Of a DNA stretch of 64,000 bases, positions 7,439 through 35,644 are shown in pieces (position 1 is the stretch's first letter; each line of letters starts with the position of its first letter). A model generated the notes under the pieces. The model was given only the letters and a program-made list of their open reading frames with translations, had not been told where the DNA came from and made no database searches. The position numbers and the translations under genes were made by a program. Source of the stretch: Acidobacteriota bacterium. GTDB lineage: Bacteria > Acidobacteriota > Vicinamibacteria > Fen-336. The DNA is taken from assembly GCA_022340585.1 (NCBI GenBank), contig JAJDNS010000132.1:7967-71966 (forward strand). Direction: 5' to 3'.

Positions 7439-7454
7439 GGCAAAGGAGGGAGCC

Positions 7455-8780: not shown

Positions 8781-8824
8781 TCGGGGCTCCCCACGACGTC
8801 CTTTGAGCTCGAAGGAGGCAGGCG

Positions 8825-9265
8825 ATGGGTGAGGAAGCGTCGGCGTGGCCGGGGGGGATGCCGCGGGTCGGGGAGAAGGCCCAGCGGTCGCGGCGGATCG
8901 AGCCCGAATACATCCAGCTCTTTACCGATATCAGCGGCGACCGGAACCCGCTCCACTACGACGAGAAGGCCGCCGCCGCCTCTCGCTTCGGTGAGATCGT
9001 GGTGCAGGGCGGCGTCACCAGCGCGATCCTCAACGCGGTCGTGGCCGAGGACCTGCCGGGCCCGGGCACGGTCTTCCTCCACGTGGACTGGAAGTTCACG
9101 GCCCCGGTCCGGCCCGGCGACACCATCACCGGGGCGGTCGAGGTGCTCGAGGTCCGTGAGGACAAGCCGATCACGAGGCTCGCGACGACCGTCACCCGGC
9201 AGGACGACGTGGTCGTTCTGGAGGGCACGGCCGCCTGCTACACGATGGCCCTTGCCGGGCCTTGA
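8825..9265 (+). CDS. MaoC-like dehydratase (hotdog fold)
   Basis: SGDRNPLHYD, LPGPGT, FTAPVRPGD. Confidence 0.9.
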   Translation: MGEEASAWPGGMPRVGEKAQRSRRIEPEYIQLFTDISGDRNPLHYDEKAAAASRFGEIVVQGGVTSAILNAVVAEDLPGPGTVFLHVDWKFTAPVRPGDTITGAVEVLEVREDKPITRLATTVTRQDDVVVLEGTAACYTMALAGP

Positions 9266-9376
9266 GCGCGGTGCTACCTTCGTCCCCAGGGCTCCCGGCA
9301 GGCAACCGTGGCGGCAACGGAGCGCGCACCGCGCGGCCGAGGTCGCCGATTCCATGCTCGGGGGCGAAGGGGCACG

Positions 9377-9958
9377 ATGGCAACGGGCGAGGTCACCCAG
9401 CTTCTCCGGGCCTACGACGGGGGCGACCGCTCCGCCTTCGACCGTCTCGTCCCCATCGTCTACGACGAGCTGCGCCGCCTGGCCCGACGGCAGCTGTACC
9501 GTGGACCCCGGGGGGGCCAGACGCTCAACACGACCGGCCTCGTCCACGAGGCGTATCTGAAGCTCGCGGGCGCCTCGGGTTTGCAGCTGCGCGACCGCGG
9601 CCACCTGATGGCGGTGACCGCCTGTGCCATGCGCCAGGTGATGGTCAGCCGGGCCCGTGCGCGAATGGCCGACAAGCGGGGAGGAGGCGTGGTGCCCGCC
9701 GAGCTCGAGGAGGGACGGGTGGGCGTCGAGCCGGCCGCCGAGTGGCTGCTGGACCTCGACCGGGCGTTGGCCGGCCTCCGGGAGCACGACGAGCGCCTGG
9801 CCCAGGTCTTCGAGTGCCGCTACTTCGCGGGATTGAGCGAAGAGGAGACGGCGGAGGCCCTCGGCATCTCGCTCCGCACGGGCCAGCGCTCCTGGATGCG
9901 AGCCCGGGCCTGGCTTCGTGACGCCCTCCAGAGTCGGACGCGGCATCCCGAGGCCTGA
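9377..9958 (+). CDS. ECF sigma factor, kinase-associated (TIGR02999-like)
   Basis: EVTQLL...VYDELRRLA...TLNTTGLVHEAYLKL...RYFAGLSEEETAEALGIS. Confidence 0.9.
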   Translation: MATGEVTQLLRAYDGGDRSAFDRLVPIVYDELRRLARRQLYRGPRGGQTLNTTGLVHEAYLKLAGASGLQLRDRGHLMAVTACAMRQVMVSRARARMADKRGGGVVPAELEEGRVGVEPAAEWLLDLDRALAGLREHDERLAQVFECRYFAGLSEEETAEALGISLRTGQRSWMRARAWLRDALQSRTRHPEA

Positions 9959-18721: not shown

Positions 18722-19360
18722 ATGCCCGGTCAGGCGACTCGTCGCGACTCGGGTCCTCGGGACAGCGTGAGGGCCGAGGGGAACGTGAGCCTCCTCGGCC
18801 TTCTGCGTCAGACTCACATCTTCGCCTCCACCGTCAGGGAGATCCTGGAGGTGAAGCTCCTGCGTGAGGTCAGCGACGCTCCTCTCACGCTTCCCCAGTT
18901 CCACCTCCTGAAGCTGATGGCCCGTGACGGGCGGCACCAGGTGAGCGAGGCCGCGCGCTTCCTCGGGGTCAGCCCCCCGGCCGCCACCAAGAACATCGAC
19001 AAGCTCGAGGGGCTGGGTCTGATCGTCCGGGCCCGCTCGACCGGGGATCGTCGCGCCACCCTGCTCTCGGTCAGCCCGGAGGGGCGGCGACTGGTCGAGG
19101 AGTACGAGCGGAGAAAGGCGCAGCTGGTGACCCCGGTGCTGGAGCGTTTCCGGCCCGAGGAGCTGGCACAGCTGACCACCCTGATGGAGCGCTTCTCGGT
19201 GTCGCTGCTCGAACGGGAGACGCCGGAGGCGGGCTTCTGCGCTCGATGCTGCGGGTACGTGGAGTCGGGGTGTCCCGTGGACTGGCTGCTGGGCGACTGT
19301 GCGTTCCGAAAGCTCCGCGGCCCATCACCCAGAGAGAAGAAGGGGGCGCGACCGTCGTGA
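18722..19360 (+). CDS. MarR-family regulator with a Cys-rich C-terminal tail
   Basis: LTLPQFHLL, LGVSPPAATKNIDKLE, DRRATLLSVSPEG; tail CARCCGYVESGC...C. Confidence 0.85.
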   Translation: MPGQATRRDSGPRDSVRAEGNVSLLGLLRQTHIFASTVREILEVKLLREVSDAPLTLPQFHLLKLMARDGRHQVSEAARFLGVSPPAATKNIDKLEGLGLIVRARSTGDRRATLLSVSPEGRRLVEEYERRKAQLVTPVLERFRPEELAQLTTLMERFSVSLLERETPEAGFCARCCGYVESGCPVDWLLGDCAFRKLRGPSPREKKGARPS

Positions 19361-19392
19361 GCGAAACTCCGCCACCGGCCGGAAGGAACGAG

Positions 19393-19716
19393 ATGAAATA
19401 CTGGCGAAAACCCCTGGACCTCGACGAGGTCAAGATTCCCCGGGGCGACGTCTACGTCGTCGTGGAGCGCTGCAAGGGCTGCGGCTTCTGCGTCGAGTAC
19501 TGCCCCAAGGACGTCCTGGCCCTCTCCGAGGAGTTCAACCGCAAGGGCTATCACCCGCCCAAGGTCGTCAAGCACGGGGAGTGCGTCAACTGCAACCTCT
19601 GCGAGATGATCTGCCCCGACTTCGCCATCTTCAGCATGCCCTCCAACGCGCCGCCCGACGTGGTGGCGAAGGAGAAGGCGTCCCACGACGCGAAGGAGGC
19701 CACCATTGAAAGCTGA
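19393..19716 (+). CDS. korD: 2[4Fe-4S] ferredoxin, delta subunit of 2-oxoacid:ferredoxin oxidoreductase
   Basis: CKGCGFCVEYCP and CVNCNLCEMICPDFAI. Confidence 0.85.
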   Translation: MKYWRKPLDLDEVKIPRGDVYVVVERCKGCGFCVEYCPKDVLALSEEFNRKGYHPPKVVKHGECVNCNLCEMICPDFAIFSMPSNAPPDVVAKEKASHDAKEATIES

Positions 19717-20863
19717 TCCCCAGGGCGTCCTGACCGGCGTCCACTACCTCGATGGCGACTTCGCATGCGGCGAGGGCGCCATGGCCGCCGGCTGCCGGTT
19801 CGTGGCCGGCTACCCCATCACGCCCTCGACCGAGGTCGTGGAGCGCATCGCCCGCCGCTTCCCGATGATGGGCGGCACCTTCATCCAGATGGAGGACGAG
19901 CTCGCCAGCATGGCGGCGGTGGTGGGGGCGGCGTGGACCGGCACCAAGACCATGACCGTCACCAGCGGCCCGGGCTTCAGCCTGATGATGGAGAACATCG
20001 GACTCGGGGCCATGATGGAGACGCCCTGCGTGGTGGTGAACGTGCAGCGGGGCGGGCCCTCCACCGGCCTGCCGACCATGGTCGGCCAGGCCGACATGAT
20101 GCAGGCTCGCTGGGGCTCGCACGGGGACTACGAGCTCATCGCGCTCTGCCCCCGGTCGCCCCAGGAGGCCTTCGACTTCACCGTCGATGCCTTCAACCTG
20201 GCCGAGACCTACCGGGTGCCGGTGCTGGTCATGATGGACGAGTGCGTGGGGCACATGACCGAGAAGGTCGTGATCCCCCCCGCCGACGAGATCGACATCG
20301 TCCCCCGCAAGCTGACGAGCAAACCCCCGGGAGAGTTCCTGCCGTACGAGACAAACGGGAGCCCGGTTCCCGAGTTCGCCCGGGCCGGGGACGGCTACCG
20401 CTTCCACACCACCGGGCTCACCCACGACGAGCGGGGCTACCCGGAGATGAGCGCGGAGTGCCAGGAGAAGACGGTGCGCCGCCTGATCGAGAAGATCCGC
20501 AGCAAGGCCGACGAGATCACCCGCTTCGTGGAGCTCGACACCGAGGGGGCCGACGTGGTGGTGGTGAGCTATGGCATCACTTCCCGGGTGGCCCGCATGG
20601 GGGTCGAGCTCGCCCGCAAGAAGGGGGTCAAGGTCGGGGTGATGCGCCTCGAGATCGTCTGGCCCTTCCCCGAGACGCGGATCCGCGAGCTCGCGAAGAA
20701 GGTCAAGGCCTTCGTGGTGCCGGAGATCAACTACGGCCAGATCGTCCTCGAGGTCGAGCGCTGCGCCGGCGGCCAGGCCGCCGCGGTCCTCGTCCCCCAC
20801 GGAGGGGGCGGGGTCCACGACCCCGAGGACATCGCCAACGCCATCCTGGGAGCAGCGAAATGA
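19706..20863 (+). CDS. korA: 2-oxoacid:ferredoxin oxidoreductase alpha subunit (substrate not determinable)
   Basis: GYPITPSTE, QMEDE, TSGPGFSLM, QRGGPSTGLPT. Confidence 0.92.
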   Translation: MKADPQGVLTGVHYLDGDFACGEGAMAAGCRFVAGYPITPSTEVVERIARRFPMMGGTFIQMEDELASMAAVVGAAWTGTKTMTVTSGPGFSLMMENIGLGAMMETPCVVVNVQRGGPSTGLPTMVGQADMMQARWGSHGDYELIALCPRSPQEAFDFTVDAFNLAETYRVPVLVMMDECVGHMTEKVVIPPADEIDIVPRKLTSKPPGEFLPYETNGSPVPEFARAGDGYRFHTTGLTHDERGYPEMSAECQEKTVRRLIEKIRSKADEITRFVELDTEGADVVVVSYGITSRVARMGVELARKKGVKVGVMRLEIVWPFPETRIRELAKKVKAFVVPEINYGQIVLEVERCAGGQAAAVLVPHGGGGVHDPEDIANAILGAAK

Positions 20864-21762
20864 GCACCGTCGTGGAGGACCTTCACACCGACGTCGACGC
20901 CAACGAGCACCCCATCGCACCCTTCCTGCGAATGGACCGGATGCCGCACATCTGGTGCCCTACCTGCGGAATCGGGACCGTCGTCAAGTGTTTCGCCAGC
21001 GCCCTCGAGCAGACGCGAGTCGACCTGGACAAGGTGTCGATCGTCTCCGGCATCGGCTGCACGGGCCGCGTCGCGGGCTACATGAAGCTCGACGCCTTCC
21101 ACGCCACCCACGGGCGGGCCATCCCCTTCGCCACCGGCCTCAAGCTGGGCCGGCCCGAGCTCCTGGTGACGGTCTTCTCCGGGGACGGCGACCTCTCCGG
21201 AATCGGGGGCAACCACCTGATCCACGCCGCCCGGCGGAACCTCGACATCCTCTGTGTTCTCGTCAACAACTTCATCTATGGAATGACGGGCGGGCAGAAC
21301 GCCCCCACCACCCCGGTGGGCGCCCGCTCGTCGACGATGCCCTTCGGCAACTTCGAGCACCCCTTCAACCTGGTGCACCTGGCCGCGAGCTGCGGGGCCC
21401 CGTACGTGGCCCGGTGGACGTCGCTCCACATTCGCCGGTTGACGAAGACCTTCGCCGAGGCCCTGAACCGCAAGGGGTTCCGGTTCATCGAGGTGATCGC
21501 CCCCTGCTCGACGCTCTACGCCCGGCTGAACAAGCTGGGCTCCGGCCTCGACCTGATGCGCTTTTACCACGACAACGCCGAGATCCGGCACGGGGCCGAC
21601 ACCCGCGACGCCGCCATCGACTTCCAGGGGCGGATCCTCTGCGGGAAGTTCGTCGACGTCGAGAAGCCAACTTTCACCGACCTGATGCACGAGCACTACG
21701 AGAAGACCCTGGGCGACCGCTACGTGCCGATGAAGCCCGAGGGAGGGTGGATCCATGAATAG
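20860..21762 (+). CDS. korB: 2-oxoacid:ferredoxin oxidoreductase beta subunit (TPP-binding)
   Basis: WCPTCGIG, SGIGC, HGRAIPFATG, GDGD..IGGNH, NNFIYGMTGGQ; ATGA overlap. Confidence 0.92.
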   Translation: MSTVVEDLHTDVDANEHPIAPFLRMDRMPHIWCPTCGIGTVVKCFASALEQTRVDLDKVSIVSGIGCTGRVAGYMKLDAFHATHGRAIPFATGLKLGRPELLVTVFSGDGDLSGIGGNHLIHAARRNLDILCVLVNNFIYGMTGGQNAPTTPVGARSSTMPFGNFEHPFNLVHLAASCGAPYVARWTSLHIRRLTKTFAEALNRKGFRFIEVIAPCSTLYARLNKLGSGLDLMRFYHDNAEIRHGADTRDAAIDFQGRILCGKFVDVEKPTFTDLMHEHYEKTLGDRYVPMKPEGGWIHE

Positions 21763-22354
21763 GACCGAGATCCGCGTCACCGGTTACGGGGGCCAGGGCG
21801 TCGTGCTCTGCGCCTACGTCATCGGACGAGCCAACGCGGTCAACGCCGGGAACCACTCCACGATGATCCAGAGCTTCGGCCCCGAAGCCCGGGGGTCGGC
21901 CTGCTCCGCGACCCTCGTCCTGTCGGACGAGGAGATCCTCTATCCCTACATCCGCCGCCCCGACATCTTCGTGGCCATGTCCCTCGAGGGATACGACAAG
22001 CACCGGGAAGAGCTGAAGCCGAAGGGCACCCTCATCTACGAGAAGGACCTGGTGCCGGCCCGGCTCAGGAAGGGCCAGCCCTCCTTCGGGATCTCCTCGA
22101 CCCGCATCGCCGAGGGGCTGGGGCGGACGCTGGTCCAGAACATCGTGATGCTCGGCTTCTTCGCGGCGGTCTCCAGGCTCGTACCCCGGGAGCAGTTCCG
22201 CGAGGCGGTGGAGGCCTCCGTGCCGACGGGGACGGAGGAGCTGAACCTGAGGGCCTTCGACGCAGGGTGGTCCTACTTCGAAGAGCACTACGGTGCCGAC
22301 GCGCCGTCCGGCGACGCGGTGGCGGCGGCGGAGGTGGTCAGCCCCGTCGCCTAG
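21755..22354 (+). CDS. korC: 2-oxoacid:ferredoxin oxidoreductase gamma subunit
   Basis: [31 protein letters not shown]. Confidence 0.9.
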
Positions 22355-22398
22355 GACTGGATTCGGGCCTTCCACCGCGGGAGGCCCTGGAGGAAGAC

Positions 22399-25300
22399 GT
22401 GGACCTCGAGTCCCTGAAGACGGACACCGACCTGGAAGAGACGAAGACGACGGCCGACGACGTGGTCGAGATCGAGACGCGGGTGCAGAAGCGGGCTCTC
22501 GTCATCGGTGGGGGGATCGCCGGGATCCAGGCGGCCCTCGACCTCGCCAACGCAAGGGTGCCGGTGACCCTGGTGGAGAAGTCGCCCTCGCTGGGCGGAC
22601 GCATGGCCCAGCTGGACAAGACCTTCCCCACCATGGACTGCTCGATCTGAATCCTGGGCCCCAAGGCCCTGGATGCCGGTCGGCATCCGCTCATCGACGT
22701 CGTCACGAACGCCGAGGTCACCGGTTGCGAGGGCGAGCCCGGTGACTTCCGGATCTCCGTGCGCAAGCACCCCCGCTTCGTCCGCGAGGACCTGTGCGTG
22801 GCCTGCGGGCTCTGCGTGGACGCCTGCCCCCAGGTGGGGGGCAACGAGTTCGACGTGGGCCTCAAGGCCCGCAAGGCGATCTACCGCCCCTTCCCGCAGT
22901 CGGTCCCTGCGACCTACGTCGTCGACCGGGAGTCCTGCCTCAACTTCATGCCGCACCTGACGCCGAAGCAGCGAACGAGGCTCAAGAAGGTCGAGCGTCT
23001 GAAGCACAACAAGCGTCCCGACTACCCGCCGAACATCCTCGTCTGCGGCCACTGCGAGGCGGCCTGCGACGTGAACGCCATCGACTTCGACATGCTGCCC
23101 GAGGACCTGGAGCTGCGAGTGGGCTCGGTCGTGGTGGCCGTGGGCTTCCAGGAGTTCGACGCCCGCAAGCTCGGCAACTACGGCTACGGGCGCTTTCCCA
23201 ACGTCGTCACCAGCCTCGAGCTCGAGAGGATGCTCAACGCGTCGGGAGTCACCCGGGGCCACGTGGTCCGCCCCTCCGACGGAAAGACCCCGCGGCGCAT
23301 CGTCTTCGTCCAGTGCGTGGGGGCTCGGGGTGAAGGGGGACGCCCCTACTGCAGCCGCTTCTGCTGCATGAACGCGGTCAAGGACTCGATGCTCCTGCGC
23401 CAGCACGATCCCGAGGTCGAGGACGTCACCGTCCTCTACACAGACATGAGGGCCTTCGGAAAGGGCTTCGACGACTTCGTGAAGCGCTCCCTCGAGGAGC
23501 AGAGCGCCCGCTACCTCCGCGGCCGTCCGGCCAAGATCGAGCGGGTCGGGGAAGACGACACGCTGGAAGTCTTCGTCGAGGACACCCTCCGCCACGAGCA
23601 GCGCCGCATCCCCGCCGACCTCGTGGTCCTGTCGGTGGCGGCGGCCCCGAACGACGGCGCGCGGAAGCTGGCCGAGGCCCTCGGCATCGAGACCGACCCC
23701 TACGGCTTCATCGCCCGGGAGGACCCCGCCATCTCGGCGGTGGAGACCCGCCGGGAGGGCGTCTACGTCTGCGGCAGCGCCGTGGGGCCCCAGGTCATCC
23801 CGGACTGCGTGGCCCAGGCCTCGGCGGCGGCAGCCCGGGCCCAGCTCTACCTCAGCGGCGAGCGCGTCGACCGCACCGAGGCCCCGGTTGAGCCCATGGA
23901 CCTCTCGGGGCCCCCCCGGGTGGGCGTCCTCGTCTGCCACTGCGGCGTCAACATCGGCGGGGTTCTCGACGTCGAGGCGCTGGCGCACGAAGCGGGGCGC
24001 CTGCCCGGAGTGGTGGCCGCGAAGGCGCACCTGTTTGCCTGCTCCACCGCCGGGCAGGAGGAGATGCTCGAGCTGATCCGCGAGCACGGGCTCAACCGCG
24101 TGGTGGTGGCGGCCTGCACCCCGCGCACCCACGAGCCGGTCTTCCGCGAGGGCCTGGCCCAGATCGGCTTCAACCCGTACCTGCTGGAGATGGTGAACAT
24201 CCGGGACCAGGTCTCCTGGGTCCACGCCCGGGAGCCCGACGCGGCCCAGGAGAAGGCGCGCGCCCTCATCCGGATGGGCGTGGCCCGCGCCCGCCATCTG
24301 GAGCCGCTCCAGGAGTCGAAGGCCCCCATGACCCGGGCCGCCCTCGTGGTGGGAGGAGGCATCGCCGGCATCCAGGCCGCCACGGACTTGGCGGTGCAGG
24401 GCTTCCCGGTCACGCTGGTCGAGAAGCAGGGCCGCCTCGGGGGACGCCTGGCCGCTCCGCACCTGAAGTTCCTGTACCCGAACATGCGGCCGGCGGCGGA
24501 GGTCCTCGAGCAGAAGCTCGACCGCCTGCGCAGGAGCGGCGCCCGAGTCCTACTCAACACCGAGGTCGCCGCCGTCCGCGGCTTCGTGGGCAGCTTCGAG
24601 GTGGACCTCGAGGGGCCCGCCCCGGAGACGCTGCCGGTGGGCGCCCTCGTCCTGGCCATCGGGGCCGACCTCCACGACCCCCGGGGCGAGTTCGGGTACG
24701 GCGAGCTGCCCAACGTCATCACCAGCGACGAGCTGGAGCGGGTGTTCTGCGAGACCCCGGTCGACGGGCCCGTCGGGGACGGGCGGCCCTCCTCGGCGTC
24801 GTTCATCCTGTGCGTGGGCTCCCGTGAAAAGGAGGGCAGCTGCACCGGCTGCTCGCGGTACTGCTGTCCCACCGCGGTCAAGCAGGCGATGATGCTCGCC
24901 GAGCGGGGCATCGACACCACCGTCTTCTACCGGGACATCCGGACGGTTTCCAGCGGGGCCGAGGAGATGTACCGCGCGGCTCGGGGCATGGGCGTCCTCT
25001 TCGTGCGTGTTCCCCCCGACCAGAAGCCCGAGGTGGTGGGCGAGGGACGGGCCGAGGTGGTGCGCTGCCACGACGACCTGCTGAACCGCACCGTCGAGGT
25101 CTCCACCGACCTGGTGGTCCTCAGCGTGGGCATGCGGCCGCGCCAGCCCGACACGAAGCGCCTGCACGAGATGCTCAAGGCCAGCGTGGGTCTCGACGGC
25201 TTCTTCCTCGAGCGCCACCCCGAACTCGCCCCGGTGGAGACCGCGGTCGAAGGGGTGCTCCTGGCGGGAACGGCCCAGGGCCCGAAGGACATCGTCGACA

Positions 25301-25623
25301 GCGTGGCCCAGGCCTCGGCCGCGGCCGCGAAGGCCTCGGTCTTCCTCGCTCACGACGAGGTGACCCTCGACCCGGCGGTGGCCGAGGTCGACGAGGAGCG
25401 CTGCCGCGCCTGTGGCGACTGCGTGGAGATCTGCCAGTTCCATGCCCCCGAGCTCGTGGCCACCGCCGACGGGGGACACGTGGCCCGCATCAACGCATCT
25501 CTGTGCAAGGGCTGCGGCACCTGCGCCAGCTGGTGCCCGTCGGGGGCCATCACCTGCCACCACTTCACCGACCGTCAGATCACCGCCCAGATCGACGCCT
25601 TCTTCGCGGAGGCCGCACCATGA
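22399..25623 (+). CDS. hdrA: HdrA-like flavoprotein 1 with two tandem FAD modules; selenoprotein (in-frame TGA 22648-22650)
   Basis: GTG with GGAGG SD; VIGGGIAG...[20 protein letters not shown] continues in frame into ORF 22759-25623; ferredoxin motifs, YCSRFCC, second GGGIAG core. Confidence 0.88.
22671..22688 (+). promoter_or_regulatory. Bacterial SECIS-like hairpin of hdrA-1
   Basis: GGATGCC-GGTC-GGCATCC, 20 nt after the TGA. Confidence 0.8.
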
Positions 25624-26099
25624 CCGCTCCCGCCGCGGGCTTCACCCCCCGCCTCGTGGTCTTCGCCTGCAACTGGTGCTCCTACGCCGGGGCCGACACC
25701 GCGGGAGTCTCCCGCATCCAGCACCAGCCCCACTTCCGCATGATCCGGGTCATGTGCTCGGGGCGCATCCAGCCGGGGTTCGTCCTCCGCGCCTTCGAGA
25801 AGGGGGCGGACGGGGTGCTGGTGTCGGGGTGTCACATCGGGGACTGCCACTACCAGTTCGGGAACGAGAAGGCGATCGAGCAGTTCGAGAAGACGAAGAG
25901 CGTGGTCCGCATGCTGGGGCTCGAGGAGGGACGCCTGCGCCTCGAGTGGATCAGCGCCGCCGAGGGGGCGCGGTTCGCCCAGGTGATCGACGAATTCATC
26001 GAGCAGCTCCGAAAGCTGGGCCCGAGCCCGCTGGCGGGAAACGGCCGGTCGGCCGAAGTCCCGGCTCCCGAAGCTGAGGAGGTCGAAGCCCGTGTCTGA
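25620..26099 (+). CDS. mvhD: MvhD-like [2Fe-2S] subunit
   Basis: [39 protein letters not shown]; ATGA overlap. Confidence 0.92.
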   Translation: MTAPAAGFTPRLVVFACNWCSYAGADTAGVSRIQHQPHFRMIRVMCSGRIQPGFVLRAFEKGADGVLVSGCHIGDCHYQFGNEKAIEQFEKTKSVVRMLGLEEGRLRLEWISAAEGARFAQVIDEFIEQLRKLGPSPLAGNGRSAEVPAPEAEEVEARV

Positions 26100-27255
26100 G
26101 CTCCAGGCGATCACCGGCGGCACGCGGACCTGGGCCTGCTACGACTGCGGAAAGTGCACCGCGACGTGCCCCATCTCCCGGGCGGGGGCCGCCTACAGCC
26201 CCCGCCGCCACGTCCTCGCTGCCAACTCGGGACGGAAGACCGAGGTCATCGAGGATTCCCGTTCGCTGTTCGAGTGCCTCACGTGCAGCCTCTGCGACAG
26301 CCGCTGCCCGGCCGACGTCGCCTACACCCCGCTGGTCCAGAAGCTGAGGGAGGTGGCCTACGAGGAGGGCGTCGAGCCGGACTGTCCCCACGGCGGGGCC
26401 CTGCAGTCGCTCATGCGGATGATGGCCCAGGGCGGGACGCAGCAGAACCGCCTGGGGTGGCTCACCGAAGACCTGAAGACCACGCCGGACCGGGGAGAGG
26501 TCTTCTACTTCACCGGCTGCACGATGTACTTCGACGCGCTCTTCCCGGAACTCGAGGCACACACCCTCGACGCTACGCGAGCGGCGGTCACCCTCATGAA
26601 CAGGCTGGGCATCACCCCCGTGGTGTCACCCGAGGAGCGGTGCTGTGGCCACGACCTGCTGTGGAACGGGGATCGCAAGGGCTTCGAGGCCCTGGCTCGA
26701 TTCAACATCGACCTCGTGACGAAGAGCGGGGCCGAGACGCTGGTCGCGTCCTGCGCGGAGTGCGTGCGGACCTGGAAGCTCGACTTCGAGCCGCTCTTCG
26801 AGGGCAAGCCCCCGAAGATCGTCCACATCGCCGAGCTCCTGGCCGAGCGCCTCGGGGAGCTTCCCCTCAAGGGGAACGGCGGGCGCAAGGTGACCTACCA
26901 GGACCCGTGCCGCCTGGGGCGCCACCTCGGCGTCTACGACCCGCCGCGGAACGTCCTCGACGGCCTCCCCGGGGTCGAGCGGGTCGAGATGCCCCGGTCC
27001 GGCAAGCGGGCCCAGTGCTGCGCCGGCGGCACCTGGTCCCACTGCGACCGCTTCGCCAAGTCGATCCAGGTCGACCGACTCAAGGAGGCCCGGGCCACCG
27101 GGGCGGACGTCCTCGCCACCGCGTGCCCGAAGTGCCAGATCCACTACCGGTGCGCCATGAAGGACCCGAATCTCGGCGGAGAGATCGGGATCGAGATGCG
27201 CGACGTGGCCCAGCTGGCCGTGGAGGCGCTGGGCGACGAGAACACGTCGCATTGA
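26092..27255 (+). CDS. HdrD-like Fe-S protein (two [4Fe-4S] motifs plus two CCG domains)
   Basis: [49 protein letters not shown]. Confidence 0.85.
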
Positions 27256-27275
27256 GAGAGGGAAGGAAGGACAGC

Positions 27276-29732
27276 ATGAGTCCTGAGCCGACCAATGGGG
27301 ATCTGAGGGTCGGTGTCTTCGTCTGCGACTGCGGGCTGAACATCGCGGGAGCGGTGGACTGCGGGGCGGTGACCGCCTACGCCGAGACCCTCCCGGATGT
27401 CATCTGCGCGGTTCGCAACAAGTACACCTGCGCGGACCCCGGCCAGAACGAGATCAAGGACGCGATCCAGAAGCACAAGCTGAACCGGGTCGTCGTCGCC
27501 TCCTGCACGCCGCGGCAGCACGAGCCCACCTTCCGGCAGTGCGTGCTCGAGGCCGGTCTCAACCCCTACCTCATGGAGATGGCCAACCTCCGCGAGCACT
27601 GCTCCTGGGTCCACCCGGGCGACCGCGAGGGCGCCACCGCCAAGGCCATGGACCTCGTGGCCAGCGCGGTGGCCAAGGCGCGGCTGCTCGAGCCCCAGGA
27701 GGAGATGGAGGTGCCCGTGACGAAGCGGGCGCTGGTCATCGGCGGAGGGGTGGCCGGGATCGAGGCAGCTCTCGAGCTGGCCGACGCCGGGCACCCGGTG
27801 ACCCTGGTCGAGAAGGAAGCGTCCATCGGCGGGATCATGGCCCAGCTGGACAAGACCTATCCCACGATGGATTGCAGCATATGAATTCTCGGCCCTAAGG
27901 CCATCGATGCCGGTCGGCATCGCAACATCGAGCTGCTGACGTACTCGGAAGTGGAAGACGTTGCCGGATACATCGGCAACTTCTCGGTCAAGATTCGCAA
28001 GAAGGCGCGCTACGTCGACTTCACTTCCTGCAACGCCTGTGGCGAGTGTTCCCAGGTGTGCCCGGTGACCCAGCCGGACGAGTACCAGATGGGCCTCTCG
28101 TCCCGCAAGGCCATCTACATCCCCTTCCCCCAGGCCGTGCCGTGCTCGTACATCCTCGACATGGACCACTGCCTCGGGAACAACCCCATCGCCTGCGGGA
28201 AGTGCCAGGACGTCTGCGAGAAGCAGGCCATCAACTACGACGACGCGGACGAGGTGGTCACCCGAGAGGTCGGAGCCATCATCGTGGCCATCGGCCTCGA
28301 CGTGTACGACCCCACCGAGATGGACGAGTACGGGTACACCCGCTACGACAACGTGATCACCTCCATGGAGTTCGAGCGGCTGATCTGCGCCGGTGGCCCC
28401 ACCGCCGGCCACTTCGTGCGCCCCGGGGACGGCCAGCGCCCGAAGAGGATCGGCTTCGTCCAGTGCGTTGGCTCGCGCAACCCGAAGATCGGTCGGCCCT
28501 GGTGCTCGAACATCTGCTGCATGAACACGATCAAGGACACCCTGCTCCTGGCCGACCACTATCCCGACGTGGAGAACGTCGTCTACTACCAGGACATCCG
28601 GGCCTTCGGGAAATCGTTCGAGGACATGTTCCAGCGCTCCAAGGAGAAGGGGACGCGGTACGTCCGCGGGCTGCCCGGCGACGTCGAGGAGAACCCGACG
28701 AACGGGAACCTGCTGGTCACGGTGGAGAACACCACCAGCGGCAAGCTCGAGCGCCACGAGCTCGACATGCTCGTTCTCTCGGTCGGCGTCGAGCCCCCCA
28801 AGGATCTGGCGAAGATCTCCAGCCTGCTCACCCTCTCCAAGACGTCGGACGGCTTTCTCATGGAGTCCCACCCCAAGCTCAAGCCGGTGGACGCGCCCAC
28901 TCGGGGCGTCTACTTCGCCGGCTTCTGCGAGTCGCCCAAGGACATCAAGGACTCGGTCTGCCAGGCGGGGGCGGCGTCGTCGCGAGCGGGGGCGCTCCTG
29001 AACGCGGGCAAGATCACCATCGAGGCCATCACCAGCCAGATCGACGCCGAGCTCTGCACCAAGTGCGGGATCTGCTCCCGGGTCTGCCCCTACGGCGCCA
29101 TCACCTGGAAGAAGGGGGAGGTCGCGACGGTGGTCGAGGCCGCCTGCGCCGGGTGCGGGGCGTGCGGGGCGAGCTGCAACTTCGGCGCCATCACCATGCG
29201 CCACTTCACCGACCAGCAGCTCGTGGCCCAGGTCCGGGCCATCCTCGCCGAGAAGCCCAGGGACAAGGTGATGGTCTTCGCCTGCAACTGGTGCTCGTAC
29301 GCCGGCGGGGACATGGCGGGGATCTCGAGGATCCAGTACCCCGCGACCAACCGGGTGATGCGAACGATGTGCTCGGCCCGGGTGTCGGAGGAGATGGTCC
29401 TTGAGGCCTTCCGGGCCGGGGCTCCGGTGGTCCTCGTCTCCGGCTGCCACTACGCGGACTGCCACTATATCAACGCCAACCGCCAGACCGTCCAGCGGGT
29501 GCAGAAGCTGTGGAACACCCTCGAGCGCAAGGGGGTGCGGCCCGAGCGACTCCAGCTCGAGTGGATCAGCGCCGCGGAAGGGCAGAAGTTCGCCAAGGTC
29601 ATGAAGCAGCTGGAGGAGCTTCGTCAGACCGTGACCGACGAGGAGATCGAGACGGCGAAGGAGGCCCTCAAGCCCAAGCCGAAGAAGAAGCCGAAGCCCA
29701 AGGCCGAAGCGGCCGCGGCGGCGGCGCCGTAG
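27276..29732 (+). CDS. hdrA: HdrA-MvhD fusion protein 2; selenoprotein (in-frame TGA 27882-27884)
   Basis: [43 protein letters not shown] in frame with ORF 27951-29732; C-terminal [19 protein letters not shown]. Confidence 0.9.
27905..27922 (+). promoter_or_regulatory. Bacterial SECIS-like hairpin of hdrA-2
   Basis: CGATGCC-GGTC-GGCATCG, 20 nt after the TGA. Confidence 0.8.
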
Positions 29733-29747
29733 GGGAGGGAGCCGGCC

Positions 29748-29891
29748 ATGGCCACCACGGAGACGTTCCGCTGCATGATGTGCGGCCACGAGTATCAGGA
29801 ACGAGTGGAGCGCGGGGAGGACAAGGAGCGTTCCTGTCCCAAGTGCCGCTCCAACAGCATCCGTCACCTGAAGAACGCGGGGAAGAAGTGA
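29748..29891 (+). CDS. 47-aa zinc-ribbon/rubredoxin-like protein (absent from the ORF track)
   Basis: MATTETFRCMMCGHEYQERVERGEDKERSCPKCRSNSIRHLKNAGKK; GGAGG SD; GTGA overlap with the next gene. Confidence 0.8.
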   Translation: MATTETFRCMMCGHEYQERVERGEDKERSCPKCRSNSIRHLKNAGKK

Positions 29892-31390
29892 GCGGCGACG
29901 CCCCCAACCCGGCACCTGCTCGGTCGGCCCCGGAGAAGGGGCCGGTCCGCGTCGACTTCGAGTTCCGCCGCGAGCTGGCCCGGAAGGTCGAGGGCAACCT
30001 CGCCAGCTTCTGCTACCAGTGCGGCGCGTGCGTGGGCGACTGCCCCGCCGCGACCTACTCCGACCGATTCAACCCCCGGGAGATCATGCTCGAGGTCCTC
30101 TACGGCCTCGGGGACGAGCTCATCAAGGAGGACTCGGTCCTCTGGCTCTGCACCAACTGCTACAACTGCCACGAGCGCTGCCCCCAGGAGGTGAAGCCGG
30201 TCGAGGTGATCATCTCCCTGAAGAACATGCTGGCCGACCGGGGGATCCTGCCGGAGGCAGCGAAGCGGATCACCCACACCTTCGAGACCACAGGTCGGAC
30301 CACGCCCGGCGGGCCGGCGGTGGACAAGCAGCGCGCACGCTTCGGGCTCCCTCCCCTCGCCCCGGTCCCGGTCGAGGAGATCCAGGCCCTGCTGAAGCCG
30401 GACGCCGAGGTGCCCGAGCCTCCCGAGAGGCCGGCGCCCGAGAGAGCGGTGAGGCCGGCCCCCGCCCGCAAGGATCAGAAGCGCTTCGCCTTCTTCCCCG
30501 GCTGCCTCATCCCCGCCCGGCACCCGGCCATGGAGTCCGCCATCCGAAAGACGCTCACCAATCTGGGGATCGAGATCGCCGACCTGGAGGGCGCTTCGTG
30601 CTGCCCCGACCCCATCTACTTCAAGTCGAAGGACAAGCTGGACTGGCTCTCGGTGGCCGCCCGCAACCTCACCCTGGCCGAGGAGCAGGGCCTGGACATC
30701 TTCACCAACTGCTCCGGCTGCACCGCCACGCTCTCGGAGACCCGCCACCTCCTTGAGGACGAGGAGCTCAAGGGGCGGGTGAACGGCCGCCTCCAGCGGA
30801 TCGGCCGGCACTACGACGGCACCACGCGGATCAAGCACGTGGCCGTGCTCCTCCGGGACGAGATCGGCTACGAGGCAATCCGGAAATCGGTGAAGCGACC
30901 CCTGACCGGACTCAAGGTCGCCATCCACTACGGCTGCCACCTCCTCAAGCCCAGCCGCATCATGCAGGTGGACGACCCCAACAACCCCGAGGTCCTGGAG
31001 AAGCTCGTCGAGGCCCTCGGCGCCACGCCGGTCCGCCACAGCAACTGGTACCTGTGCTGCGGTAAGGCCTGCCAGGATGAGAACGTGCCCATGGACATGA
31101 TGCACGACCTCCTCGGGGCAGTACACAAGGAGGAAGCGGAGCTTCTCTGTCTCATCTGCCCGACCTGCTTCGGGCAGTTCGACCACGGCCAGGCCAAGGT
31201 GGCCAAACGATTCGAGGAGGACTTCCACACCCCGGCCATCTACTACCTGCAGCTTCTCGCGTTCGCCCAGGGCGTCCCCTACGACGAGCTGGGCCTGGAG
31301 CGCCAGCGCTTCAAGGTGGAGTGCCTGAAGCGCTTCGAGAACGAGGACGACGAAGCCCCGGCCGCTTCCAGGAAGCAGCCCTCCGCCTGA
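29888..31390 (+). CDS. hdrB: HdrC-HdrB fusion (heterodisulfide reductase-like catalytic subunit)
   Basis: CYQCGACVGDCP, CTNCYNCHERCP; Pro-rich linker; FFPGC, SCCP, CSGC, HYGCHLLKP, CCG, CPTCFGQFD. Confidence 0.88.
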   Translation: MSGDAPNPAPARSAPEKGPVRVDFEFRRELARKVEGNLASFCYQCGACVGDCPAATYSDRFNPREIMLEVLYGLGDELIKEDSVLWLCTNCYNCHERCPQEVKPVEVIISLKNMLADRGILPEAAKRITHTFETTGRTTPGGPAVDKQRARFGLPPLAPVPVEEIQALLKPDAEVPEPPERPAPERAVRPAPARKDQKRFAFFPGCLIPARHPAMESAIRKTLTNLGIEIADLEGASCCPDPIYFKSKDKLDWLSVAARNLTLAEEQGLDIFTNCSGCTATLSETRHLLEDEELKGRVNGRLQRIGRHYDGTTRIKHVAVLLRDEIGYEAIRKSVKRPLTGLKVAIHYGCHLLKPSRIMQVDDPNNPEVLEKLVEALGATPVRHSNWYLCCGKACQDENVPMDMMHDLLGAVHKEEAELLCLICPTCFGQFDHGQAKVAKRFEEDFHTPAIYYLQLLAFAQGVPYDELGLERQRFKVECLKRFENEDDEAPAASRKQPSA

Positions 31391-31672: not shown

Positions 31673-34600
31673 ATGAGCGGTCCGCGTTTCGTGCACCGGT
31701 TCCCTCGTATCCGTCGATCACGATCGCGATCCGACAGGGTCCTGGGCTTCGTTCCCGCTCTCCTGCTCGTCCTGCTCGGCGGGGCGACCAGTCAGGCTCA
31801 GGCCGCGAAGCTCGTCGAGGTCAGCGCCCTCGACAGGGACTACCTGGTCGTCCACCTGTCCGACGGCGATGTGACCCACGACGAAGGCGGCACCGGGGAG
31901 ACGATCGTCCGGTACACCCCGGAACTCGACACCGCCGCCGCGTCCCAGACCGGCAGCTGGACGATCAAGTCGGCGGCGGACGCCAGCTACGGCACCGCGG
32001 GACAGCACCCCCAGGGCTGCCATCGCAAGAAGAAGCTGAGCGGCCATGCCCAGATGGGGTGGTCCGGCAGCGACTTCCACTATGAGTACACCTACGAGCA
32101 CTGGCTCTACCTCAGGCTGCCCAGCTCCCTCAAGCAGGGCCTGACCTACACGCTCGAGATCGCCTCGGCCACGAACATCGAGAGCACCTCCGCATCGTTC
32201 ACCTTCGACGTCTTCCACAGCCGCTCCGAAGCCGTGCACGTGAACCTCGTTGGCTACGCCGCGGACGCGGCTCACAAGGCCGCCGATCTCTACCACTGGA
32301 TGGGCGACGGCGGCGCCCGCGACTACTCCACCTTCGAAGGCAACACCGTGTACCTCCTTGACGTCGACAGCGGGGAGGCCTACCCGGCGGGGCTCGTGAG
32401 CTTCTGGACGCCCGGCGGTAGCGATGTCGGCTGGTACGACCTCACAGGCTCAGACGTCTGGAACGTGGATTTCCCCGACTTCGCCAATGCCGGCATCTAC
32501 CGACTGGTCGTCGAGGGCGTCGGCTGCAGCGGGGACTTCGAGATCAGGAACGACGTCTATGCCGTCCCGTACGAGGTCGCGGTGCGCGGCTACTTCTACA
32601 TGAGGATCGGAGAGGACAACCCCACCGGCATCTCGCCAGCCCCACGAACTCCCCGCTACGTCCCGGGGGTCAGCCCGGCCTCGACCACGGTGTACCTGAC
32701 GACGATGCAGCCCTGGCATCCCGAGTGGAAGACCTTCTCGGGAGGTGACGTGTGGGACAGGCCCGACGACTGGGCGGCCTACCGCAAGGCCGGCAACCCG
32801 ACCAACCCCAGTGCCTGGGGAGGGCACTCCGACGCCGCCGACTGGGACCGCCATCTGGGCCACGTCGCGAACATCTACGACCTCCTGCTGCCCTTCCTCA
32901 TGACGAACGGCGCGATCAGCGACGACGACACGGGGATCGCGGAGAGCGGCAACGGAATACCCGACATCCTGGACGAGGCCCGCTACGAGGTGGACTTCTG
33001 GCTTCGACTGCGTGACGGAGAGGGCTACTCCCACGGCCTGACCAACCCCAACGACAGCAACGAGATGTTCCAGGCCGGGCCGACGGCCATCGCCGCCTGG
33101 GCCAATGCCGCGAATGCCGCCATGCTCGCCGACGCGTTCCGCGTCGCCGGCCTGACCACTCTCATGGACGAGTACGAGGGCGCGGCTGCCACTGCCTACG
33201 ACTACGCCGATGGCCTTGGGAATCCCATGCTCGACGAGGGCCTGGAGCTCGACGATGGCACCCTGAGGGGCCGGGATCTCAAGATGACCGCGGCCGCCTT
33301 CCTGTACAACCTGACCGGCGCGCCGGCGTACGAGGAAGTGCTCGAGGCGGAGAGCGTCTGCTCCGGCGCACCAGCGACGCTGAAGAGCAGCAGCCGAAAC
33401 CAGATCTACGGATCTGCGGCCTACCTGGTCACGCCCCAGTCAGTCCACTACCCCACGCTGCAGGCCAACATGAAGACGGCGATCCTCAACGAGGCCAGGA
33501 GCGAAGAGGCCGATCAAGCCGTCAGCCGACCCTCCCGGCGCGCGACCGACCAGACCTCCTCCTACTTCCACACCGCCCAGAACGTGCAGCGCACCATCGT
33601 CGCCCACGCCGTGGCCGATGACCCTTCCGACCGCGACTTCTTCCGCAAGGCCCTCACCCTCGAGGCCGACTGGGGTCTGGGCCGGAACCCCTTGAACATG
33701 ATACAGATGACGACGGCCTTCACGCCGCTCGAGTCCAAGCGCAGCGTCCCGGAGGCCTACACCTCGGGGATGGATGACGGGGTGGCAGGCGTTCACCCGG
33801 GGCACACGCCGTACATGAACCTCGACGACTGGGCCCCCGGAATGACCATGGGAAGGCCGTCAGCGTTGTACGAGAACAGCTACCCGACGAACGTCCCCTC
33901 CACCTGGCCCATAGGGGAGGCGTACTTCCCCTCGCGCTGGGTCTGGGCGCACAACGAGTTCACGCCGCGGCAGACCATGCGCGGGAAGATGGCATTGTAC
34001 GGATACCTCCATGGGCTCGCCGCAACCACGCTGCCCGCCAATCCCTCCCTCACGGTCGGCAGGACCGGCAACGGGAGCGGCACGGTGACATCGTCACCGC
34101 CCGGCATCGACTGTGGCAGCGACTGCAGCGAGGAGCACGCCCCCGGAACGAGTGTGACCCTCACGGCGACGGCCGACAGCGAGTCGGTGTTTGGCGGCTG
34201 GGGCGGGGCCTGCTCCGGGACGGACAGCTGCGACGTGGTCGTGGACACCGCCACGTCGGTGACGGCCGCGTTCAACACGAGCGCCTACACGCTGGGCGTC
34301 GACGACGTCTCCGTCATGGAAACCGATGCGGGCGGGACCGCGCTCGCGTTCACGGTGACGCTCACCGCCAGCACGCTCCCGGACACGTACACCCTGAGCG
34401 TCTCCACATCGGGCTCGGGCCGGGGCACGGTGACCGCCTCCCCGGCCGGCATCAGCTGCGGGAGCGATTGCCACGAGGTCTACGATGCCGCGACGACCGT
34501 GACGTTGACGCCCTCGGTGGCCAGTGGCTCCACGTTCGCGGGCTGGAGCGGAGACTGCGCGGGTTTCGGCGAGTGCACGGTCACAATGAGCGCGGCGCGG

Positions 34601-35644
34601 TCCGTGACTGCGACGTTCGACGGGCCGGCGACGGTGCCCGGCGGCCTGCGCTGGGTCGGGCGCGTGGATGCCACCGACCCCGGCGCCGTCCGCTTCGCGT
34701 GGCAGGGCGCGGGCTTTGTCGCCGCCATGGCTGGTCCCACCGTGAGCGTGAACCTGCGGACGAGCGGGGCGACGACGGTGTTCTTCCAGCCGGTGGTCGA
34801 CGGCCTCCCCGGCGATCGCTTCGAGGTGACACAGGGCGGCGTCCAGACGGTGACTCTGGCGAGCGGGCTGTCCTCGGGTGACCACGTGATCGAGCTGTAC
34901 CGCGAGACCGAGGGCATGTACGGTGTGAGCACGTTCCTGGGCTTCGCCGAGGGCACGGTCACCGGGGCGCCGGCGACCAGCGGACGGATCGTGGAGGTCG
35001 TGGGCGACTCGATAAGCGCCGGATACGGCAACCTGGGTGTCGAGCCGCACCCGGGCTGGGTCGCGAACCCCGCCTGCCACTGGACCGCGGATAACTCTTC
35101 CTGGTTCCAGACCTACGCGGCGGTCGCGGGCCGCGCGTTCGGCGCCGACGTCTCGACCGTTGCGCGTTCCGGCTGGGGCATGTCGCGGGATCGCGACGGC
35201 AGCACGAGCGGCGTGCTCTCCTCGGTGTACGGGAACGCCGTCGGCACCGAGGACACCACGCCCTGGAGCTTCGCGCCGGAGGCCAGCGTCGTGATCGTCA
35301 ACCTGGGCACGAACGACATCAGTCCAGGCGACCCCGGGACGGCCTACGAGACCGCGTACATCAGCTTCCTGCAGGACGTGCGCAGCCGGTACCCGGAGGC
35401 GTGGATCTTCGCGACCATCGGGTCGATGCTCGGCGGCTCCGAGCTCGACACCATCAACGCCCACCTGGCGAACGTGGTGGCGGCACTGGGCGACGACAGG
35501 GTCGTCACCTTCGACCTCGGGACGCAGGAGATGGGTTCGAACGGGGAGATTCCCACGGGCTGCGACTGGCACCCCAACGTCGTCGACAACGCGCGCATGG
35601 CCGAGATCATCAAGGCGCGGCTCCAGACCCACCTGGGCTGGTGA
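31673..35644 (+). CDS. Secreted multidomain CAZyme: Ig-like + GH9-like catalytic domain, two InlB-B-like repeats, CE2-like SGNH esterase
   Basis: VHVNLVGY, GGHSDAADWD, ESGNGIPDILDEA, LGRNP, HNEFT; GSGTVTSSPPGIDCG-type repeat twice; VVGDSISAGYG, NLGTND, CDWHP. Confidence 0.8.
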   Translation: MSGPRFVHRFPRIRRSRSRSDRVLGFVPALLLVLLGGATSQAQAAKLVEVSALDRDYLVVHLSDGDVTHDEGGTGETIVRYTPELDTAAASQTGSWTIKSAADASYGTAGQHPQGCHRKKKLSGHAQMGWSGSDFHYEYTYEHWLYLRLPSSLKQGLTYTLEIASATNIESTSASFTFDVFHSRSEAVHVNLVGYAADAAHKAADLYHWMGDGGARDYSTFEGNTVYLLDVDSGEAYPAGLVSFWTPGGSDVGWYDLTGSDVWNVDFPDFANAGIYRLVVEGVGCSGDFEIRNDVYAVPYEVAVRGYFYMRIGEDNPTGISPAPRTPRYVPGVSPASTTVYLTTMQPWHPEWKTFSGGDVWDRPDDWAAYRKAGNPTNPSAWGGHSDAADWDRHLGHVANIYDLLLPFLMTNGAISDDDTGIAESGNGIPDILDEARYEVDFWLRLRDGEGYSHGLTNPNDSNEMFQAGPTAIAAWANAANAAMLADAFRVAGLTTLMDEYEGAAATAYDYADGLGNPMLDEGLELDDGTLRGRDLKMTAAAFLYNLTGAPAYEEVLEAESVCSGAPATLKSSSRNQIYGSAAYLVTPQSVHYPTLQANMKTAILNEARSEEADQAVSRPSRRATDQTSSYFHTAQNVQRTIVAHAVADDPSDRDFFRKALTLEADWGLGRNPLNMIQMTTAFTPLESKRSVPEAYTSGMDDGVAGVHPGHTPYMNLDDWAPGMTMGRPSALYENSYPTNVPSTWPIGEAYFPSRWVWAHNEFTPRQTMRGKMALYGYLHGLAATTLPANPSLTVGRTGNGSGTVTSSPPGIDCGSDCSEEHAPGTSVTLTATADSESVFGGWGGACSGTDSCDVVVDTATSVTAAFNTSAYTLGVDDVSVMETDAGGTALAFTVTLTASTLPDTYTLSVSTSGSGRGTVTASPAGISCGSDCHEVYDAATTVTLTPSVASGSTFAGWSGDCAGFGECTVTMSAARSVTATFDGPATVPGGLRWVGRVDATDPGAVRFAWQGAGFVAAMAGPTVSVNLRTSGATTVFFQPVVDGLPGDRFEVTQGGVQTVTLASGLSSGDHVIELYRETEGMYGVSTFLGFAEGTVTGAPATSGRIVEVVGDSISAGYGNLGVEPHPGWVANPACHWTADNSSWFQTYAAVAGRAFGADVSTVARSGWGMSRDRDGSTSGVLSSVYGNAVGTEDTTPWSFAPEASVVIVNLGTNDISPGDPGTAYETAYISFLQDVRSRYPEAWIFATIGSMLGGSELDTINAHLANVVAALGDDRVVTFDLGTQEMGSNGEIPTGCDWHPNVVDNARMAEIIKARLQTHLGW

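Follow-up and report, generated by a model that had tools for sequence, protein, structure and literature searches.

The window examined in this work, i.e. the whole stretch of 64,000 bp taken from contig JAJDNS010000132.1 of an Acidobacteriota genome (GCA_022340585.1), carries between positions 18722 and 31390 eleven genes on the plus strand coding for a MarR-family regulator, the four subunits of a 2-oxoacid:ferredoxin oxidoreductase (OFOR, here Kor) and several proteins related to heterodisulfide reductase (Hdr), including two HdrA-type flavoproteins with predicted selenocysteine (Sec) residues. The G+C content of the window is 69% and the reading frames were fixed with a third-position G+C plot, each assignment being backed by Pfam or NCBIfam profile matches. 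All the genes named in the first-pass annotation, which had been made from the nucleotide sequence without database searches, are present, co-oriented and located where that annotation had placed them, as seen from the translations and from both profile collections. The features are as follows.

18722..19360, plus strand: MarR-family regulator with a C-terminal four-Cys motif (Pfam MarR, 52.3 bits)
19393..19716, plus strand: KorD, delta subunit with two [4Fe-4S] clusters (Fer4_7/Fer4; NCBIfam OGOR_delta below cut-off)
19706..20863, plus strand: KorA, alpha subunit (POR_N and PFOR_II; NF006412 over cut-off)
20860..21762, plus strand: KorB, thiamine pyrophosphate (TPP)-binding beta subunit (TPP_enzyme_C)
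21755..22354, plus strand: KorC, gamma subunit (POR family, 112 bits)
22399..25623, plus strand: HdrA1, fused double HdrA of 1074 aa, predicted to contain Sec (mapping on 5odc_A; in-frame TGA at 22648-22650)
22648..22707, plus strand: putative Sec codon of HdrA1 and downstream hairpin resembling a selenocysteine insertion sequence (SECIS) (fold, conservation, covariation)
25620..26099, plus strand: free-standing MvhD-type [2Fe-2S] adaptor without Sec (Pfam FlpD, 172.6 bits)
26092..27255, plus strand: HdrD-like subunit with two [4Fe-4S] clusters and two CCG domains (CCG twice, Fer4_17/Fer4_8)
27276..29732, plus strand: HdrA2, full HdrA with a C-terminal MvhD domain, 818 aa (NF040770 over cut-off; putative Sec codon at 27882-27884)
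27882..27941, plus strand: putative Sec codon of HdrA2 and SECIS-like hairpin (fold, conservation, covariation)
29748..29891, plus strand: 47-aa zinc-ribbon protein of the CxxC...CxxC type (translation; Zn_ribbon_8, 28.3 bits, under the cut-off of 34.4)
29888..31390, plus strand: HdrC/HdrB fusion of 500 aa (TIGR03288 and TIGR03290 best matches, both below cut-off)

With the start codons chosen here, the ten junctions comprise six overlaps of 4-11 nt, that of hdrA1 and mvhD being of the ATGA type, and four gaps of 15, 20, 32 and 44 nt, in agreement with the earlier description of the genes as mostly overlapping or less than 50 nt apart; an alternative GTG start of KorD lies at 19357. Judging by this spacing and common orientation, the eleven genes are one real, tightly packed operon. 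The promoter and terminator scan gave no promoter-like sites and five terminator-like sites, all on the minus strand and not above shuffled sequences, so that it provides no evidence either way, and the same applies to its finding no plus-strand terminator-like site inside the cluster. Neither a hydrogenase, a formate dehydrogenase nor an Flx-type or other NAD(P)H-binding module was detected inside the cluster by the Pfam and NCBIfam scans. The regulator at its head ends with a C-x2-C-x9-10-C-x8-9-C motif (window positions 19240-19360) which is conserved across 26 aligned sequences from several phyla, including the MarR genes of related loci L008 to L061, and may form a metal-binding or Fe-S redox sensor controlling the operon.

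The alpha, beta, gamma and delta subunits of Kor are encoded together, as is characteristic of four-subunit OFORs, and all of them score over the Pfam cut-offs. KorA matches the NF006412 model of the 2-oxoacid:acceptor oxidoreductase alpha subunit with 561 bits against a cut-off of 411, and its best matches in PDB are 1yd7, a Pyrococcus 2-ketoacid enzyme, followed by 8ys5, the alpha subunit of a 2-oxoglutarate synthase (269 bits). The best NCBIfam match of KorB is the beta subunit of 2-oxoglutarate ferredoxin oxidoreductase (OGOR; 227 bits, under the cut-off of 364), and that of KorD is OGOR_delta (68.5 bits, under the cut-off of 125). The substrate of Kor is probably 2-oxoglutarate. Elsewhere in the host genome (G000), on contig C126 at positions 50189-55316, the gene for the E1 component of 2-oxoglutarate dehydrogenase (OGDH) directly adjoins another OFOR alpha/beta pair, so the host has 2-oxoacid enzymes of both the NAD and the ferredoxin type as neighbours on this contig. 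The ATP-citrate lyase profile PF16114 had zero matches in the genome and likewise in every control, and the search therefore says nothing about a reductive tricarboxylic acid (rTCA) cycle.

The first of the two hdrA genes had been listed as a single hdrA; the identification as HdrA holds, but the 1074-aa product consists of two HdrA-like halves fused in one chain, as mapped on the HdrA of Methanothermococcus (5odc_A). Half a contains a thioredoxin reductase (TrxR)-like FAD domain with a C-x-x-Sec motif and an inserted ferredoxin domain and does not possess the N-terminal domain, while half b comprises the N-terminal Fe-S domain, a TrxR-like domain with no C-x-x-C/Sec motif and the C-terminal ferredoxin domain. 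Residues 26-181 and 215-434 correspond to HdrA residues 139-514, residues 505-676 to 3-174, and residues 887-1072 to 470-653. The stretch in between, residues 182-214 (window positions about 22942-23040), is a basic insertion of about 33 residues in the inserted ferredoxin domain of half a with no counterpart in the aligned HdrA structure; it may serve as a docking element. HdrA2 is assigned by NF040770, the model of the HdrA-MvhD fusion HdrA2, with 1140.5 bits against a cut-off of 1100 over positions 1-776 of 777, the FlpD (MvhD) domain being found at residues 665-781.

In the alignment with 5odc_A the Sec residues of both proteins fall on the position of Cys197, and the flavin-adjacent Lys409 is matched by Lys328 and Lys828 of HdrA1 and by Lys420 of HdrA2. 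The complete set of features of a bifurcating HdrA, namely all domains, Sec at the Cys197 position and the lysine, is thus found in HdrA2, and in HdrA1 its parts are split over the two halves.

Both HdrA genes contain an in-frame TGA within the motif D-C-S-I-U, and a 6-bp hairpin with a GGUC loop begins 24 nt past the T of each TGA. Hairpins of such a kind act as bacterial SECIS elements. Among the related loci described below, 120 of 121 motif sites are TGA, the remaining one being a Cys codon in L084. A looser motif pattern, applied for the analysis of hairpin conservation, yielded 134 TGA sites, of which 129 are distinct. Each of the six hairpin pairs is preserved in 128-129 of the distinct sites, and one pair covaries between C-G (89 sites), T-G (20) and T-A (20). 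The host genome possesses tRNA-Sec on contig C152 together with SelA and SelB genes over the profile cut-offs. A UGA codon at a Cys position, the hairpin and the decoding machinery, as expected of a bacterial selenoprotein, are hence all present, Sec decoding of both UGAs is credible, and the earlier proposal that both HdrAs are selenoproteins is supported.

Two different CCG-type units are encoded, as had been predicted, both with complete Cys sets. The HdrD-like subunit has TfrB as its best NCBIfam match (144.9 bits, under the cut-off of 385), and all ten of its CCG cysteines are invariant in an alignment of 13 sequences. A search at E ≤ 1e-20 gave 2795 relatives, with an identity across phyla of about 70%; the best 120 of these 2795 are 65-91% identical and bear names from several phyla. 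The HdrC/B fusion combines the two CCG motifs of HdrB with the two [4Fe-4S] sites of HdrC (CCG twice and Fer4_8 in Pfam); it matches TIGR03288 (HdrB) with 280 bits and TIGR03290 (HdrC) with 106 bits, each under its cut-off, and aligns to Methanococcus HdrB (8rvu_b) with 252 bits.

The HdrD-like protein was used to scan one genome per species, which resulted in at least 584 confirmed relatives, and the best 80 loci, all of them metagenome-assembled genomes by title, were taken for comparison. The presence of the other genes was determined by TBLASTN with the window proteins, with only those loci counted which had enough flanking DNA. KorB was detected in 61 of 62 countable loci, HdrA2 in all 71 and its MvhD end in 68 of 69, with KorC (59 of 63), KorA (55 of 61), KorD (53 of 59), HdrA1 half b (64 of 69), HdrA1 half a (55 of 65), the free-standing MvhD (67 of 75), the Zn ribbon (55 of 68) and HdrCB (50 of 63) being present in most. 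In five loci KorA was missed because an extra hdrA1 copy moves the kor genes past the flank. Within the clade with at least 58% identity of the HdrD-like protein nearly all loci are complete, e.g., HdrCB is found in 44 of 45, and the Zn ribbon in 47 of the 47 close-clade loci with enough DNA. The 80 loci span a dozen or more phylum-level labels according to the record titles, including Planctomycetota, Acidobacteriota, Gemmatimonadota, Myxococcota, Zixibacteria, KSB1, Chloroflexota and WOR-3. As the same gene order occurs in many phyla, the arrangement is far beyond chance, and the Kor and Hdr genes, whose linkage the first-pass annotation had proposed, form a conserved unit.

The cluster is patchy within the order of the host, where 5 of 41 genomes possess it, including that of the host itself; it is also present in three of the five other genomes of the genus, and the nearest named locus comes from the same family, from the genome of an uncultured Acidobacteriota member. 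The phyla are intermixed in the HdrA2 tree within a clade with 100/100 support, which together with the patchy presence fits lateral spread of a self-contained unit. No neighbours beyond marR to hdrCB are conserved across phyla in the 80 loci; MarR, located upstream of kor in 24 loci, is the only gene recurring outside the structural genes. The flanks of the window are likewise unrelated to the cluster and code for a Ser/Thr kinase, DUF481, RraA-like and TIM-barrel proteins, a carbohydrate esterase, a histidine kinase and a PEP-utilising enzyme. Directly downstream, at 31871-35644, there is a gene unrelated to the operon which encodes a protein of 1257 aa combining InlB-B-repeat-like, CE2_N and GDSL esterase domains; a longer reading frame of this esterase from 31568 begins with a hydrophobic stretch which looks by eye like a signal peptide.

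Sister loci carry an NAD(P)H module instead of the tandem HdrA, HdrCB and the Zn ribbon. In eight of them (L056, L064, L065, L068, L070, L071, L079 and L082) HdrA1 and MvhD are replaced by one fusion of 780-805 aa, consisting of a GltD/NfnB-like NAD(P)H flavoprotein, two [4Fe-4S] clusters and an MvhD domain, and a related GltD-containing form is found in L081 and L086. An Acidobacteriota locus (L072, positions 4639-7747) carries NuoE-, NuoF- and NuoG-N-like genes between the kor and Hdr genes together with a single HdrA1b-like protein and MvhD; these HydBC/BamGHI-like genes recall the input arm of class II benzoyl-CoA reductase. Five further loci (L009, L018, L024, L035 and L067, at about 5000-9500 each) possess an extra HdrA1 paralogue whose first half is split by a GltD/NfnB-like NAD(P)H domain, i.e., the tandem-HdrA and the NAD(P)H-binding form stand within one cluster. 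In the KSB1 locus L065 a citrate synthase gene (positions 8398-9702, 469 bits in Pfam) is flanked within the cluster by the GltD-MvhD fusion and the HdrD-like gene, which may be a hint of a tricarboxylic acid (TCA)-cycle context.

HdrCB lies downstream in 44 of the 46 tandem-HdrA loci with enough downstream DNA and in none of the eight NAD(P)H-module loci, a tabulation which is not a statistical test since the loci are kin; L063 and L083 carry HdrCB elsewhere in the locus. The GltD-type locus L056 nests among tandem-HdrA loci in the HdrA2 tree with support of 83/88, suggesting more than one exchange. The earlier statement that hydrogenase, formate dehydrogenase and Flx are lacking is consequently right for the window cluster and does not extend to the family, as relatives carry NAD(P)H modules where hdrA1 stands in the window, which makes the lack of Flx a property of the window variant. 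Due to this exchange, Kor, the HdrD-like subunit and HdrA2/MvhD can be read as the constant core. With less certainty, tandem HdrA1, MvhD, HdrCB and the Zn ribbon may be viewed as one interchangeable module at the port otherwise occupied by the NAD(P)H modules.

The first-pass annotation had suggested looking in the host genome for mvhAG, fdh, bam and dsrC genes. The genome is rated 100% complete. It contains three [NiFe] hydrogenases of the HoxEFU, sulfhydrogenase-like and Hyd-2-like types and no MvhD-linked one, no FdhA over the cut-off and no match to AFOR_N (BamB), the controls of this search having matched in 5 of 14 genomes; no further MvhD was found in it outside the cluster and QmoB. 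The [NiFe] hydrogenase input MvhAG, or its substitute FdhAB, which characterizes the HdrABC-MvhADG type was found neither in the cluster nor in the genome. The host possesses two DsrC-family genes, and the family was not found in three of the five other cluster-bearing genomes searched (G042, G043 and G044; CP070744, CP070758 and CP070633), so that DsrC cannot be a general substrate. A GltD-like gene is located about 2.7 kb from a DsrC-family gene on contig C147 (positions 3309-7760), which may be a DsrL-type arrangement. An hdrA locus on contig C172 was considered as a paralogous Kor-Hdr cluster and rejected, as it represents qmoABC beside aprAB and sat.

Contigs of one metatranscriptome-labelled run match the cluster exactly at 19817-19967, 21393-21560, 25334-25484, 25859-26024 and 31004-31196, touching korA, korB, mvhD and hdrCB, and two more span the korC/hdrA1 junction (22153-22454) and the hdrA1/mvhD junction (25600-25750); the parts with no contigs, e.g., 26228-27195, carry no information. 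These matches are a weak hint of expression and of read-through along one transcript. A complex of KorD with residues 204-818 of HdrA2 was predicted with a score of 0.52, the best of three controls having 0.00, with contact agreement between runs of at least 89% and partner pLDDT (predicted local distance difference test) of at least 73. In calibration, 58 of the 80 solved complexes attained the mark applied, as did 2 of the 110 mismatches, and scores of up to 0.60 at the mark belong to 7 of the 80 solved complexes and to both of the mismatches that passed; the prediction lends weak support to a contact between KorD and HdrA2.

Based on the gene content, domain architecture, Sec decoding signals, synteny and module exchange observed here, it is reasonable to suggest that Kor and the Hdr proteins constitute a functionally coupled bifurcating or confurcating system, a reading to which we would assign a probability of roughly 0.55. 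Its assembly as a single complex, the wiring of the branches, the substrates and the direction are inferred from the analogy to solved Hdr complexes and to the structure of class II benzoyl-CoA reductase (BCRII) as given in a preprint (10.64898/2026.04.10.717634). The bifurcating FAD would be held by HdrA2/MvhD, the full Sec-HdrA, with electrons entering or leaving through the [2Fe-2S] port of MvhD. The low-potential branch would connect the ferredoxin domains of HdrA2 with Kor through KorD or free ferredoxin, and the high-potential branch would lead via HdrC-like clusters to the CCG site of the HdrD-like subunit, which would act on a disulfide-type or protein acceptor. In the window variant the medium-potential port would be a second Hdr unit, composed of the pseudo-dimeric Sec-HdrA1, the free MvhD, HdrC/B and the Zn ribbon and working on a thiol/disulfide couple. 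In one direction such a system would drive the reductive carboxylation of succinyl-CoA, and in the other the low potential of 2-oxoacid oxidation would pull an otherwise unfavourable oxidation.

Several points weigh against this coupling. Co-transcription and co-conservation are no proof of a physical complex. The RNA-library contigs may come from library DNA, and a contig over two genes does not prove a single transcript; a weak pass such as that of KorD and HdrA2 is wrong in the majority of cases, unless the contact was already likely in advance. The hallmark bifurcation lysine stands in all three TrxR-like domains, so the sequence cannot tell which flavin bifurcates. As to the substrate, KorB, KorC and KorD score under the cut-offs of the NCBIfam OGOR models, and the only model passed by KorA is a generic 2-oxoacid one; besides, the genome encodes OGDH E1 and has three further OFOR loci sharing about 35% identity with the cluster Kor, which makes the latter unnecessary for a plain TCA cycle. 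The assignment of the port, finally, rests on presence and absence patterns of related, non-independent loci.

A more specific form of the coupled system, in which the tandem-HdrA variant would bifurcate without any port for hydrogen, formate or pyridine nucleotides, i.e., a thiol-driven 2-oxoglutarate synthase or its reverse, is considered improbable. Two Sec-dependent HdrA flavin sites would then be coupled through the MvhD adaptors with Kor docked as the low-potential module, and the thiol/disulfide couple of HdrC/B would replace NAD(P)H as the two-electron partner.

The strongest competitor of Kor-Hdr coupling is that the genes are co-regulated and the enzymes separate, with Kor oxidising a 2-oxoacid and reducing free ferredoxin. 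The Hdr proteins would then be non-bifurcating ferredoxin:disulfide reductases which use this ferredoxin to maintain one or two thiol pools, or protein disulfides, in the reduced state, and MarR would act as the redox sensor of the operon. HdrA2B2C2 of Methanosarcina acetivorans reduces the heterodisulfide with ferredoxin alone (PMC5296606), the four-Cys tail of MarR could sense the redox state, no obvious medium-potential donor module is present in the window variant, and the KorD-HdrA2 prediction is only a weak pass. We nevertheless regard this explanation as rather unlikely, as a simple reductase would need less machinery than two complete HdrA systems equipped with MvhD adaptors, a universal Sec and the conserved flavin lysine, and the MvhD-fused NAD(P)H modules of relatives at the same place reproduce the classical three-port layout of bifurcating Hdr complexes; moreover, Kor remains linked to the Hdr genes across phyla, even though any OFOR could supply free ferredoxin.

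It is much less probable that the cluster is a sulfur module, in which DsrC or some other sulfur carrier would be the partner of the CCG subunits, as has been proposed for Flx-Hdr, Qmo or the sulfur-oxidising sHdr system, linking 2-oxoacid oxidation to sulfate or sulfite reduction. The host genome does possess sat, aprAB and qmoABC together on contig C172 and two DsrC-family genes, the domain order of HdrA1 plus MvhD equals that of QmoA plus QmoB, and the cluster is found in Ca. Sulfomarinibacter loci. However, the cluster does not adjoin dsr, apr or qmo in the host and contains no gene for a lipoate-binding protein or sulfur transfer, DsrC was not found in the three cluster-bearing genomes named above, and most of the hosts by title (Phycisphaerae, Gemmatimonadota, KSB1 and the like) are not known as sulfate reducers, the search for sulfur genes having covered DsrC in five genomes only. 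[quoted passage not shown]

The Kor reaction proceeds at about -500 mV and is among the hardest redox steps of central carbon metabolism. If Kor and Hdr are coupled as suggested, the operon points to a widespread solution of this step by Hdr-based bifurcation, kept almost unchanged in hundreds of uncultured bacteria of sediments, marshes and rhizosphere, with a third port at which NAD(P)H modules and a second Hdr unit would be interchangeable. This makes it a testable question whether Hdr cores that bifurcate attach directly to enzymes fixing or releasing CO2 in organisms other than methanogens, as well as which substrates the HdrB- and HdrD-type sites use in bacteria and why Sec is so strictly kept at the Cys197 position. 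To our knowledge, bacteria generally do not possess genes for the biosynthesis of coenzymes M (CoM) and B (CoB). A thiol-driven machine, if true, would represent a class of flavin-based bifurcation not yet described.

Among known systems, HdrA2B2C2 of M. acetivorans shares the HdrA-MvhD fusion with the window; it uses F420H2, ferredoxin and CoM-S-S-CoB and has separate HdrB2 and HdrC2 (PMC5296606), whereas the partners in the window are an HdrD-like subunit and an HdrC/B fusion. QmoABC has the same domain order as HdrA1 plus MvhD, with QmoA devoid of the N-terminal domain followed by QmoB with the N-terminal domain and an MvhD end, but it includes the membrane protein QmoC and stands beside aprAB. 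The genome's own qmoABC is located on another contig and is 30-38% identical to the window proteins; the HdrD-like subunit matches the qmoC model with 47.3 bits over the Fe-S part only, and the window cluster contains neither QmoC nor aprAB. The tandem or fused HdrAs of anaerobic methanotrophic archaea (ANME) and of the Moorella MetFV-HdrABC-MvhD complex resemble HdrA1 in having lost the N-terminal domain in one half and Cys197 in the other, which was read as a built-in heterodimer (PMC9012536); the order of the halves is reversed in the window, Sec occupies the Cys197 position and the partner enzymes are different.

BamDEF of Geobacter metallireducens, for which the PDB search returned no chain, can be likened to the window by its description: its HdrA dimer is fused, one half of it being N-terminal and of the bifurcating type, an MvhD-like protein serves as the adaptor, and the high-potential exit is HdrD/HdrBC-like. 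In the preprint on the BCRII structure (10.64898/2026.04.10.717634), the assembly of fused HdrA dimer, MvhD-like and HdrD-like proteins is reported to send low-potential electrons directly to a bound catalytic module and not to free ferredoxin. It differs in having Sec in the adaptor and not in HdrA, and the window has no BamBC or BamGHI and possesses a second full HdrA system.

The closest precedents are the clusters of tubeworm symbionts (Ca. Endoriftia and the Escarpia symbiont) and of Thioflavicoccus mobilis, in which kor lies in hdr-flx(-tfr) clusters in an rTCA region, as published in 2019 and 2024 (PMC6315080; PMC11636981). It was proposed in 2019 that the bifurcated electrons of Hdr-Flx go directly to Kor, and in 2024 the symbiont kor-hdr-flx genes were reported to be co-expressed as an operon; furthermore, a cluster with Mvh/Hdr, pyruvate:ferredoxin oxidoreductase and OGOR was noted in Zixibacteria in 2013 (PMC3903129). 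The word "undescribed" used in the first-pass annotation is, in view of these papers, too strong. According to the published descriptions, the symbiont clusters, like the window, contain a four-subunit Kor among hdrA/hdrBC and an MvhD-type FlxD; they are set apart by FlxABCD with NADH input, tfrAB and acl or other TCA-cycle neighbours, none of which is found in the window, where a fused double Sec-HdrA, a Sec-HdrA2-MvhD, the HdrD-like subunit and the Zn ribbon are encoded instead. No paper on a tandem-Sec-HdrA/Kor cluster was found in a full-text literature search whose coverage leaves out most subscription journals and supplements. Rather than a first sighting, the cluster is a widespread variant of the already proposed Kor-Hdr coupling, which extends and generalises the concept developed for the symbionts.

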